The notes under the pieces were generated by a model that was given only the letters and a program-made list of their open reading frames with translations, searched no databases and had not been told where the DNA came from. This document shows, one piece after another, positions 1,227 to 33,640 of a DNA stretch of 64,000 nucleotides; within the stretch, counting starts at the first letter, position 1, and the number at the start of each line of letters is the position of its first letter. The translations under genes were made by a program, and so were the position numbers. The DNA comes from Escherichia coli (GTDB lineage Bacteria; Pseudomonadota; Gammaproteobacteria; Enterobacterales; Enterobacteriaceae). The stretch lies in assembly GCF_003334405.1 (NCBI RefSeq), contig NZ_QOWM01000016.1, one strand, 5' to 3'.

Positions 1227-2600
1227 TTAACTCCGCTTATACAGCGGCAACCAAATCACCAGCCGTAAACCGCCCAGCGGGCTGTCTTCTGCCTTCACCC
1301 AGCCACGATGCTGCTGAATGGCGGTTTCAACAATCGCCAGCCCCAAACCTGTACCGCCAGATTCACGATCGCGTGCTTCATCGGTACGATAGAACGGACG
1401 GAAAATCTGTTCGCGATCTTCCGGGCTAACGCCAGGACCATCGTCGTCCACCGTAATGGTGATACCGTCTTTATCTACCGCAAAGCCCACTTCAATCTTC
1501 GTATGGGAATAACGCAGAGCATTACGAACAATGTTTTCCAGCGCACTTTCCAGGGCGTTCGGATTGCCGTACAGCGGCCACGGCCCAGGCGGGAAGTTAA
1601 CTGTCAACGACTTGCCCATTTGCTCGGCTTCGAACGCCGCGTTATCCAGCACTTCACTCCACAACTGGTTGGCTTTGATGGTTTCGCTAACCAGCGCGTT
1701 TTTTTGCTGATTACGTGACATCACCAACAGATCGTTGATCATGCTGTCCAGACGTTGCGCTTCGGTTTCAATACGCTCCAGTTCCTTGCTTTCACCGCTA
1801 CGACGGCGCAGTAACGCCGTACCCAGTTGCAGACGCGTCAGCGGGGTGCGCAGCTCGTGAGAGATATCAGAAAGCAGACGCTGCTGAGAGGTCATCATGC
1901 GCTCCAGCGCGGTGACCATCTGGTTAAAACTGGCACCTGCGGCAAGGAATTCCTGTGGCCCCGCTTCCAGTTCCGGGTGCTGGCGTAAGTTTCCCTGGGC
2001 AACTTCATCGGCAGCGTTTTTCAGCTTACGCGCCGGTTTTGCCAGACTCCAGGCCAACCACAACAGCAGCGGCGTACTGACCAACATGGTGACAATCAGC
2101 AGTAATAGCGGGCGGTCAAACAGTAAGTTAATGAAATCGGATTGAGAACTGCTGGCCGGACGAATCAGATAAAGTTGGTAATTATCTTCGCCATCACGCA
2201 CGGAGAACGGACCGACCAGTTCCACGCGGCCATACTTTTTCTTCTGCGGATGATCGGCGTTATCGGCCTGACCAATAAAGTTACGAATGATCTGCATTTC
2301 GCTGCGTTCAGCGCCGATCACGCGGCCTTCGGTGGTCACCAATAACAAACGCTGTCCTGGCGGTGCCCACTTATCAATCGCCCGGAACAGACGCCGCCAC
2401 CACATTAAATCGTTGGGCGGATCGTTCGCCAGCTCCGCTTCGACATGCTGCTCAATCATCAGCCCCTGACGCTGTTCGCTATCCAGAAGCTCGGTCATCT
2501 GGCGTGAATCGAGCTTGGGTAACATCAAAACCAACATCAACACCAGCGCCAGCGTCAGCCAGAAGATGGCGAAGATGCGCGCGGTTAAGCTGCCTATCAT
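1227..2600 (-). CDS. cpxA: envelope-stress sensor histidine kinase CpxA
   Basis: ORF 457 aa; N-terminus MIGSLTARIFAIFWLTLALV..., two TM segments, HisKA/HATPase region; 4-nt overlap with cpxR. Confidence 0.97.
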   Translation of the reverse strand: MIGSLTARIFAIFWLTLALVLMLVLMLPKLDSRQMTELLDSEQRQGLMIEQHVEAELANDPPNDLMWWRRLFRAIDKWAPPGQRLLLVTTEGRVIGAERSEMQIIRNFIGQADNADHPQKKKYGRVELVGPFSVRDGEDNYQLYLIRPASSSQSDFINLLFDRPLLLLIVTMLVSTPLLLWLAWSLAKPARKLKNAADEVAQGNLRQHPELEAGPQEFLAAGASFNQMVTALERMMTSQQRLLSDISHELRTPLTRLQLGTALLRRRSGESKELERIETEAQRLDSMINDLLVMSRNQQKNALVSETIKANQLWSEVLDNAAFEAEQMGKSLTVNFPPGPWPLYGNPNALESALENIVRNALRYSHTKIEVGFAVDKDGITITVDDDGPGVSPEDREQIFRPFYRTDEARDRESGGTGLGLAIVETAIQQHRGWVKAEDSPLGGLRLVIWLPLYKRS

Positions 2601-3295
2601 GAAGCAGAAACCATCAGATAGCCGCGACCACGCAAGGTTTTAAACCACGGGTGACCATCTTTACGATCCGGCAGTTTACGACGCAGGTTGGAAATGTGCA
2701 TATCAATAGCGCGGTCGAAAGGCGTCAGGCGTTTGCCCAACACTTCCTGGCTTAAATGTTCACGGGAAACCACCTGACCCAGATGCTGTGCCAGCAAATA
2801 GAGCAGGGTAAACTCAGTACCGGTTAACTCCAGCGTTTGCCCGTCGAAGCTGGCTTCCTGACGGCCTGGATTCAGCACTAAGGCATCAACTTCCAGTGTC
2901 GGTGAACCGTTGTCGTTGTTTTGCTGTTGCTCGCTCCAGTGCGAACGGCGCAGGATCGCGCGAATACGTGCCACCAGCTCACGATCATTAAACGGTTTCG
3001 GGAGATAGTCATCTGCGCCCAGCTCAAGGCCGAGAACGCGATCAAGTTCACTGCCGCGCGCCGTCAACATAATGACAGGCGTCTGGTGTGTCTGGCGAAG
3101 TGCTTTTAATGTGTCGATACCATTTTTCTTCGGCATCATTACGTCAAGCAAAAGTAAATCAATGCTGTCGTCCAGAAGATCAAGCGCCTGTTCCCCATCG
3201 TGGGCAACAATCACGTTGAAGCCTTCCATCTCGAGCAGCTCCTTTAATAGGGAAGTCAGCTCTCGGTCATCATCAACTAACAGGATTTTATTCAT
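2597..3295 (-). CDS. cpxR: OmpR-family response regulator CpxR
   Basis: ORF 232 aa, MNKILLVDDDRELTSLLKELL...; receiver plus winged-helix domains. Confidence 0.97.
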   Translation of the reverse strand: MNKILLVDDDRELTSLLKELLEMEGFNVIVAHDGEQALDLLDDSIDLLLLDVMMPKKNGIDTLKALRQTHQTPVIMLTARGSELDRVLGLELGADDYLPKPFNDRELVARIRAILRRSHWSEQQQNNDNGSPTLEVDALVLNPGRQEASFDGQTLELTGTEFTLLYLLAQHLGQVVSREHLSQEVLGKRLTPFDRAIDMHISNLRRKLPDRKDGHPWFKTLRGRGYLMVSAS

Positions 3296-3350: not shown

Positions 3351-3365
3351 TTTACGTTGTTTTAC
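3351..3365. promoter_or_regulatory. CpxR box (GTAAA-N5-GTAAA) in the divergent cpxRA / cpxP control region
   Basis: Plus strand tttacgttgttttac is the reverse complement of GTAAAacaacGTAAA; lies between cpxR and cpxP starts. Confidence 0.8.
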
Positions 3366-3444
3366 ACCCCCTGACGCATGTTTGCAGCCTGAATCGTAAA
3401 CTCTCTATCGTTGAATCGCGACAGAAAGATTTTGGGAGCAAATG

Positions 3445-3945
3445 ATGCGCATAGTTACCGCTGCCGTCATGGCCTCAACGCTGGCAGTCAGTTCATTAAG
3501 CCACGCTGCTGAAGTCGGTTCAGGCGATAACTGGCATCCGGGTGAAGAACTTACGCAGCGCAGTACGCAGAGCCATATGTTCGACGGCATAAGTTTAACC
3601 GAACATCAGCGTCAGCAGATGCGAGATCTTATGCAACAGGCCCGGCACGAACAGCCTCCTGTTAATGTTAGCGAACTGGAGACAATGCATCGCCTTGTCA
3701 CCGCAGAAAATTTTGATGAAAACGCTGTGCGCGCACAGGCAGAAAAAATGGCGAATGAGCAAATTGCTCGTCAGGTTGAGATGGCAAAAGTCCGCAACCA
3801 AATGTATCGCCTGTTAACGCCGGAGCAGCAAGCGGTTTTAAACGAGAAACATCAACAACGAATGGAGCAGTTGCGTGACGTGACGCAATGGCAAAAAAGT
3901 TCATCGTTGAAGCTATTGAGTAGTAGCAACTCACGTTCCCAGTAG
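3445..3945 (+). CDS. cpxP: periplasmic Cpx pathway inhibitor/adaptor CpxP
   Basis: ORF 3442..3945 (MMRIVTAAV...); start placed at the second ATG for the 166-aa protein; signal peptide and LTXXQ-type motifs. Confidence 0.93.
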
Positions 3946-3952
3946 TAAACCC

Positions 3953-4012
3953 TGTTTTCCTTGCCATAGACACCATCCCTGTCTTCCCCCACATGCTGTG
4001 GGGGTTTTTTTT
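3953..4012 (+). ncRNA. cpxQ: probable CpxQ sRNA (cpxP 3'UTR-derived, ends at the cpxP terminator)
   Basis: Established knowledge that the cpxP 3'UTR yields an sRNA ending at the intrinsic terminator; the terminator is seen at 3986..4012. The 5' boundary is approximate. Confidence 0.5.
3986..4012 (+). terminator. intrinsic terminator of cpxP
   Basis: cccccaca-tgc-tgtggggg stem-loop followed by T8. Confidence 0.9.
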
Positions 4013-4093
4013 ATCCTCAATTTGCCTGCTGCTTAATGCATTGCAGATGATTTGCTTCCGTTATACTAGCGTCAGTTGATAGCGGGAGTATTT

Positions 4094-6195: not shown

Positions 6196-6294
6196 GCCTG
6201 ATGCGCTTCGCTTATCAGGCCTACATGAATTCTGCAATTTATTGAATTTGCAAACTTTTGTAGGCCGGATAAGGCGTTCGCGCCGCATCCGGCA
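6196..6294. repeat. BIME (pair of inverted REP units)
   Basis: gcctgatgcgcttcgcttatcaggcctac ... gtaggccggataaggcgttcgcgccgcatccggca; the track ORF 6179..6376 is an artefact of this repeat. Confidence 0.85.
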
Positions 6295-25576: not shown

Positions 25577-25675
25577 GCCGGATGCGGCGTGAACGCCTTA
25601 TCCGGCCTACAAGTTCGTGCAAATTCAATAAATTGCAATATGACGTAGGCCTGATAAGCGTAGCGCATCAGGCGA
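25577..25675. repeat. BIME (two inverted REP units)
   Basis: tgccggatgcggcgtgaacgccttatccggcctac ... gtaggcctgataagcgtagcgcatcaggcg. Confidence 0.85.

Positions 25676-31405: not shown

Positions 31406-33640
<2,235 letters not shown>

Follow-up and report, generated by a model that had tools for sequence, protein, structure and literature searches.

The DNA analysed here, which we call the window, is a 64,000-nt stretch of Escherichia coli sequence that includes the cpx locus. The cpxA (1227-2600) and cpxR (2597-3295) genes lie on the minus strand, and cpxP (3445-3945) and fieF (from 4094) follow on the plus strand, with pfkA beyond. The cpxP open reading frame encodes 166 amino acids and occupies the same coordinates as those to which the RefSeq CDS b4484 maps; its product scores 215.3 bits against the NCBIfam equivalog NF007687 ("cell-envelope stress modulator CpxP"), for which the cut-off is 160. 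The reading frame closes with a TAG at 3943-3945, and an in-frame TAA is next at 3946-3948. The region between cpxR and cpxP contains a GTAAA-N5-GTAAA box on the minus strand (3351-3365), where GTAAANNNNNGTAAA has its only exact match within the 64 kb. From what is established about the Cpx regulon, we take this box to be a CpxR site and the input for transcription of cpxP and of the small RNA CpxQ, for which the cpxP mRNA is the parent. A 98-aa antisense ORF at 3698-3994 was rejected, as it had neither a terminator nor other support. Elsewhere in the window, matches above the Rfam threshold were obtained for OxyS (55910-56019, minus strand), a cobalamin riboswitch (61009-61198, plus), the L31 leader (24579-24631, plus), the ClpQY (hslVU) promoter element (19910-19967, minus) and REP-type elements scored as naRNA4/ES036 (1135-1212 and 6217-6258, minus; 25611-25652, plus), all of them to be expected in this region of the E. 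coli chromosome.

Positions 3900-4030 of the window match E. coli K-12 MG1655 (NC_000913.3) with 100% identity. Through this alignment the RefSeq ncRNA gene cpxQ (b4716, NC_000913.3 4106330-4106387), whose product is named "small regulatory RNA CpxQ", maps to 3955-4012 on the plus strand, giving a mature RNA of 58 nt with a 5' end that reads UUUUCCUUGCC. Because the sequence is that of MG1655 at the annotated cpxQ gene, CpxP is encoded upstream, and the hairpin, the U8 tail and the unpaired seeds are as described, 3955-4012 is almost certainly the known, annotated CpxQ RNA of E. coli, a cleavage product of the 3'-terminal part of the cpxP message. The sequence-only reading had assigned the stretch to CpxQ and had called it not novel. 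Both statements hold, since the RNA is annotated in RefSeq and published, and nothing new is added here to its biology. The primary CpxQ paper is reportedly that of Chao and Vogel (2016, Mol Cell), on Salmonella. The same reading had started the RNA at 3953, and this needs correction, as the annotated 5' end is 2 nt further downstream, at 3955.

A 75-nt query (window 3946-4020, CpxQ included) matched 5425 of 5426 complete E. coli genomes, a comparison at the level of the whole query that does not resolve individual positions. In the three variant E. coli genomes that were read, all differences fell within the terminator stem-loop and the U-tail, and in one of the three an A-U pair of the terminator stem is replaced by G-C, a compensatory change. 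Position 3996, in the terminator loop, is C in K-12, which is the minority base: A is found in most E. coli and in other genera, and in the cross-species alignment described below 92% of sequences have a base other than C, usually A. This difference is a neutral polymorphism of the loop. In one E. coli genome the annotation places an IS200C transposase gene within the cpxP-fieF stretch (NZ_CP095533.1 491443-493054). The PGAP-annotated E. coli genomes list no feature at the position of CpxQ.

The architecture given in the sequence-only reading was borne out by measurement. It had put 40 nt between the cpxP stop and the terminator, and the distance is exactly that (3946-3985). The string it had quoted as pyrimidine-rich, uuuuccuugccauagacaccaucccugucuu (3955-3985), contains 23 pyrimidines in 31 positions (74%), a content equalled in only 0.75% of the 31-nt windows of the 64 kb. 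The GC hairpin followed by U8 that it had described is also present: the hairpin, CCCCCACA/UGC/UGUGGGGG, spans 3986-4004 with eight pairs (six of them G-C) closing a 3-nt loop, and T8 follows at 4005-4012, one of only two runs of at least eight T on this strand of the window. A terminator scan called the two elements together as a rho-independent terminator (3986-4012, plus strand), where the cpxP mRNA has its 3' end, with a folding energy of -14.3 kcal/mol for the hairpin with its tail. The 60-nt stretch 3953-4012 folds with -17.4 kcal/mol (z = -2.44 relative to shuffled sequences). In the predicted fold the 5' end, seed region 1 (UUUUCCUUGCCAU, 3955-3967), is single-stranded, and is followed by a small hairpin (AGACA/CCAUCCC/UGUCU, 3968-3984) that displays seed region 2, CCAUCCC, in its loop with an unpaired probability of at least 0.97. 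We infer that the terminator at 3986-4012 is the Hfq-binding module of CpxQ.

The annotated 5' end places the processing site between G3954 and U3955 (CCCUG|UUUU, 3950-3958, plus strand). According to published work, RNase E releases CpxQ from the cpxP mRNA by a cut close to the stop codon, with Hfq sharpening the cut and protecting the product (PMC9438474, PMC5222698), and the resulting RNA carries a 5' monophosphate and U as its first nucleotide (PMC6755755, PMC10250213). The site is predicted to be mostly unpaired, with unpaired probabilities of 0.55-0.99 within the cpxP 3' end. Set against the rule RN|WUU for RNase E (PMC5222698), it has the expected U at +2 and +3, whereas position -2 is U and not a purine. 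The sequence context fits in part with RNase E having produced a 5'-monophosphate end. In E. coli, the cpxP 3'UTR fragment is recovered in Hfq chimeras by both RIL-seq and CLASH (PMC5145812, PMC7213987), CLASH alone giving 233 interactions and 2094 chimeras (PMC7213987). Published data speak against a 5'-triphosphate end, against the lack of a ~58-nt Northern signal in Cpx-induced wild-type E. coli and against CpxQ levels that do not respond to RNase E inactivation or to loss of Hfq. Northern blots, RNase E site mapping, TIER-seq and Hfq RIL-seq/CLASH are all already in print for CpxQ, and the earlier description of the region as an Hfq-binding, cpxP 3'UTR-derived small RNA is in keeping with the published RNase E processing, Hfq dependence and recovery in chimeras.

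To follow the RNA beyond E. coli, we scanned species genomes, one per species, with the 18-base pattern CCCTGTTTNCCTTGCCANAG. At least 120 stretches matched. Among the matches listed, at least 110 were Enterobacterales loci (Enterobacteriaceae, Erwiniaceae, Yersiniaceae and Pectobacteriaceae) and at least 10 were unrelated chance matches, of which about nine were expected. Genera represented in these listed Enterobacterales loci are, among others, Escherichia, Salmonella, Citrobacter, Enterobacter, Klebsiella, Raoultella, Cedecea and Buttiauxella, and also Pantoea, Erwinia, Mixta, Yersinia, Brenneria and Lonsdalea. In 106 of 109 loci among the matches listed, a gene for a CpxP homologue lies upstream on the same strand, the other three having less than 200 nt of flanking sequence; in these listed loci the identity of CpxP to the window protein ranged from 46 to 100%, with a median of 71%.

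We aligned 104 sequences from the matches listed. Positions 3950-3969 are invariant by construction in this alignment, having been fixed by the search pattern, and cannot be counted. [quoted passage not shown] For seed 1, the support independent of the pattern comes only from the E. coli variants read, the E. coli-wide match and the Rfam Hrs1 consensus. In the terminator stem, compensatory changes preserve the pairing. Five of its eight pairs show changes on both sides in the 104 sequences, the covariation score is 0.190 compared with 0.040 in shuffles (none of 500 shuffles reached 0.190), and 94.6% of cells are paired, as against 40-62% when the partners are slid. The small hairpin at 3968-3984 showed no covariation in the same 104 sequences; its five stem pairs are essentially invariant, four of them with a single departing sequence and none changed on both sides. 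Because the body is nearly invariant while the terminator stem varies yet stays paired, CpxQ bears the signature of an RNA with a single-stranded body read by sequence and a 3' hairpin read by shape.

Repression by CpxQ has been reported for nhaB, skp, agp, ydjN, fimA and cfa (PMC9438474, PMC4817254, PMC6755755, PMC10250213), and the envelope-related targets in these papers substantiate the earlier statement that CpxQ acts on envelope-protein mRNAs. The 5' end is the seed for nhaB and cfa (PMC6755755), and in E. coli the target motifs recovered by RIL-seq and CLASH are rich in G, with complementarity to both CpxQ seeds (PMC5145812, PMC7213987). We predicted duplexes between seed 1 and MG1655 target sequences, using 300 shuffled seeds per site for comparison. 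The skp Shine-Dalgarno region (-18 to -6) gave 11 bp at -15.9 kcal/mol (7 of 300 shuffled seeds as good), the nhaB leader (-17 to -5) 11 bp at -15.1 kcal/mol (1 of 300), the nhaB coding sequence (+306 to +315), the site drawn in PMC10250213, 8 bp at -11.7 kcal/mol (19 of 300), and cfa (-135 to -127) 8 bp at about -14 (-14.1) kcal/mol (8 of 300), an energy of -14 kcal/mol being reached by 6.7% of random 200-nt windows of the region. The predicted duplexes with nhaB, skp and cfa, whose energies beat chance by only a moderate margin, are consistent with the published targets and give them no more than moderate support. In the predicted nhaB leader duplex, nucleotides 1-11 of CpxQ would pair with AGGUAAGGGAAAC, which lies just upstream of the start codon in E. 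coli. According to PMC10250213, E. coli does not conserve the site at the nhaB translation start with which CpxQ pairs in Salmonella. Lowering of CpxP by CpxQ, an effect specific to E. coli, requires nucleotides 1-63 of cpxP (PMC4817254). Between CpxQ and cpxP -60 to +120 (window 3385-3565) there was no pairing that beat the shuffles, 123, 210 and 146 of 300 being as good, and simple seed pairing would offer no obvious explanation of the published effect on CpxP.

No CpxQ family was found in Rfam 15 at the gathering threshold. A permissive scan placed RF02628 ("Hrs1") at 3940-4012 on the minus strand, with 41.4 bits relative to a gathering score of 56.4 (E = 5.7e-7); further permissive matches, NsiR1 and anti-hemB among them, were rejected as chance matches driven by the terminator. 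The consensus of RF02628 starts with AAAAAAAaCCCCGCC, and its reverse complement is the CpxQ body, containing CCCUGUUUaCCUUGCCAcAGgCAuAUCCCUGUCU. In Pantoea and Erwinia loci the model scores above threshold (82.1, 69.0 and 59.5 bits), always opposite to the cpxP strand; under our locus labels, RF02628 matches opposite to cpxP lie at L079:3532-3605, L067:1373-1446 and L077:3374-3447. In the paper that defined Hrs1, the gene lies with cpxP on one side and fieF on the other, all three on one strand ("> > >"); a rho-independent terminator, dependence on Hfq and detection by Northern blot are reported, and the RNA is described as specific to Erwinia (PMC4070566). Hrs1 is the CpxQ orthologue of the Erwiniaceae (Erwinia and Pantoea), and RF02628 appears to be strand-flipped. 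With the model reversed, its score below threshold on the minus strand says nothing against the identity of CpxQ, and the reversal accounts for the fact that Rfam does not annotate CpxQ in E. coli.

The 3' part of the gene also proved to be a phage attachment site. Of 5426 complete E. coli genomes, 833 have the cpxP-fieF stretch split, with the match on the cpxP side ending at window position 4015. We read the interrupted locus in two of the 833 genomes, and both contained a prophage. Strain 602354 has a P2-like prophage of 31.7 kb, with int, cox and a replication endonuclease through to ogr, and its attL and attR share GACACCATCCCTGTCTTCCCCCACATGATGTGGGG(G/T)TTTTTTTTATC, which corresponds to window 3969-4015. 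Strain SCU-171 has a lambdoid prophage of 47.5 kb with a P2-type integrase; here the exact repeat corresponds to window 3970-3992, and the CpxQ copy proximal to cpxP has a phage-derived terminator with a compensatory change in the stem. The att stretches lie, in our locus labels, at L130:566-765 and 32189-32428, in L128/L129, and at L131:1574-1620. The reconstructed attP was found in 62 phage records (WPhi, fiAA91-ss, other Peduovirus, and Yersinia and Salmonella phages), and the copy is unannotated in the 25 records listed. In WPhi the same 47 nt lie between ogr and int, with TGTGGACA arm repeats on the flanks. Directly after ogr there is a terminator-like hairpin, and the phage copy is therefore unlikely to be simply the ogr 3'UTR.

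The attB core of the WPhi-type P2-like phages thus occupies 3969-4015, without strand, overlapping nucleotides 15-58 of CpxQ (44 nt) and three further nucleotides; it is empty in the window. Because this 3' part of CpxQ is duplicated exactly in attP, integration rebuilds an intact cpxQ, and a second copy that lacks seed 1 is left next to fieF. The 3' 44 nt of cpxQ thus behave as a tRNA gene's 3' end does, with the phage bringing a replacement copy; the gene-rebuilding logic of an attP copy has been set out for tRNA and tmRNA sites (PMC3448106). The WPhi integration site has been given as MG1655 4104392, and in genome papers as "cpxP-fieF", and described as intergenic (PMC3448106, PMC3032704, PMC7609406), a description that dates from before CpxQ became known. 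In the library of papers searched, none joined CpxQ, prophage and "integration site". The attP copy (nucleotides 15-58) includes seed 2 and the Hfq-type terminator, and if transcribed it might conceivably serve as a partial CpxQ mimic or competitor, an idea that we consider improbable.

Four other explanations of the region were weighed. The stretch could be an ordinary cpxP 3'UTR and terminator without function in trans, the short RNA being a decay intermediate. In its favour, a hairpin with a U-tail is left by every intrinsic terminator, and RNase E commonly yields fragments of mRNA 3' ends (PMC5222698). A plain terminator would, however, keep its structure and not the single-stranded sequence upstream of it, whereas among the matches listed 3970-3985 stays 95-100% conserved as CpxP identity falls to 46%. 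Target regulation and cpxQ deletion phenotypes have moreover been published (PMC4817254, PMC6755755, PMC10250213), and rescue of seed mutants by compensatory target mutants has been reported for cfa and nhaB; we regard an inert 3'UTR as very improbable. Equally improbable in our judgement is an origin like that of MicL or DapZ, in which a separate promoter within the last part of cpxP would drive CpxQ, instead of its being cut from the mRNA. Internal promoters are known for some 3'UTR small RNAs, but a consensus promoter scan gave no sigma-70-like site upstream of 3955 inside cpxP, in a search that is insensitive and also failed to flag the known cpxP promoter. This origin is also contradicted by the 5' U, a poor initiating nucleotide (PMC10250213), and by the published 5' monophosphate and RNase E-dependent biogenesis (PMC9438474, PMC6755755, PMC5222698).

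Two further explanations are still more remote. The orientation of the Rfam model might indicate a functional RNA on the minus strand, as RF02628 matches that strand in the window (E = 5.7e-7) and, in Pantoea and Erwinia loci, rises above its gathering score opposite to cpxP. On the minus strand an A-run precedes the hairpin, hence there is no terminator, and the defining paper has Hrs1, with its terminator, on the cpxP/fieF strand (PMC4070566). The minus-strand match consequently reflects an error of strand in the model and not an antisense RNA, for which we see next to no chance. Nor do we give any real credence to the proposal that the sequence is conserved because phages use the DNA for attachment and not because of the RNA, although 3969-4015 is the core common to attL, attR and attP of the WPhi-type phages. 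Positions 3955-3968 lie outside that core and are conserved too, and conservation holds in Yersinia, Brenneria, Lonsdalea and Cedecea, where the terminator differs from the phage core. Phages often target conserved RNA genes, and the dependence is more likely to run the other way.

With CpxQ as the preferred reading, the following sequence of events may be proposed. Envelope stress activates CpxR, which drives cpxP, and at this locus activated CpxR would act on the cpxP promoter through the box at 3351-3365. Transcription stops at the intrinsic terminator 3986-4012, as its sequence and covariation show. RNase E would then cut the single-stranded CCCUG|UUUU just past the stop codon, with Hfq bound to the terminator and U-tail, and free a stable 5'-monophosphate RNA; this outcome is taken from the literature, the sequence context being the part checked here. 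Two C/U-rich seeds, the free 5' end UUUUCCUUGCCA and the loop CCAUCCC, would pair with G-rich mRNA sites, and would block translation or promote decay by RNase E, as the literature describes and as the complementarity confirmed for nhaB, skp and cfa would allow. A single transcript would in this way yield both the periplasmic protein CpxP and a non-coding regulator that reduces the synthesis of envelope proteins.

For annotation, these results confirm a known regulatory RNA at 3955-4012 that automatic pipelines would miss, since PGAP lists no feature there and Rfam has no match at its gathering threshold. If the strand of RF02628 were corrected and the model widened to a CpxQ family, pipelines could annotate CpxQ across the Enterobacterales. 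The phage copy of CpxQ, if transcribed, could alter the envelope-stress regulon of the host, although its expression and function are pure conjecture.

Compared with the reference CpxQ of MG1655, the RNA in the window is the same gene, with the same position after cpxP, the same terminator and the same seeds. Hrs1 of Erwinia amylovora (Zeng and Sundin 2014) resembles it in its place at the cpxP-fieF locus, its strand, its Hfq dependence and its terminator; it is listed as 74 nt, at E. amylovora coordinates 130070-130143 on the plus strand, which takes in sequence upstream of the CpxQ processing site, and its consensus has two substitutions in seed 1 relative to CpxQ. As an attachment site, cpxQ resembles tRNA-Ile for phage 186, ssrA for Fels-2 and SopE-phi, and cyaR and rybB for P2-like elements, in that attP contains a duplicate of the RNA gene's 3' portion, the cyaR RNA being listed as a P2-type site (PMC3032704). 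With its site inside cpxQ, WPhi joins the phages that integrate at RNA genes (tRNA, tmRNA and the cyaR RNA). Among RNAs of similar origin, SdhX, SroC, NarS and GlnZ are, like CpxQ, cut near a stop codon, and have a single-stranded seed and the terminator of the parent as Hfq module (PMC9438474); they differ from CpxQ in their parent mRNAs and in their regulons.
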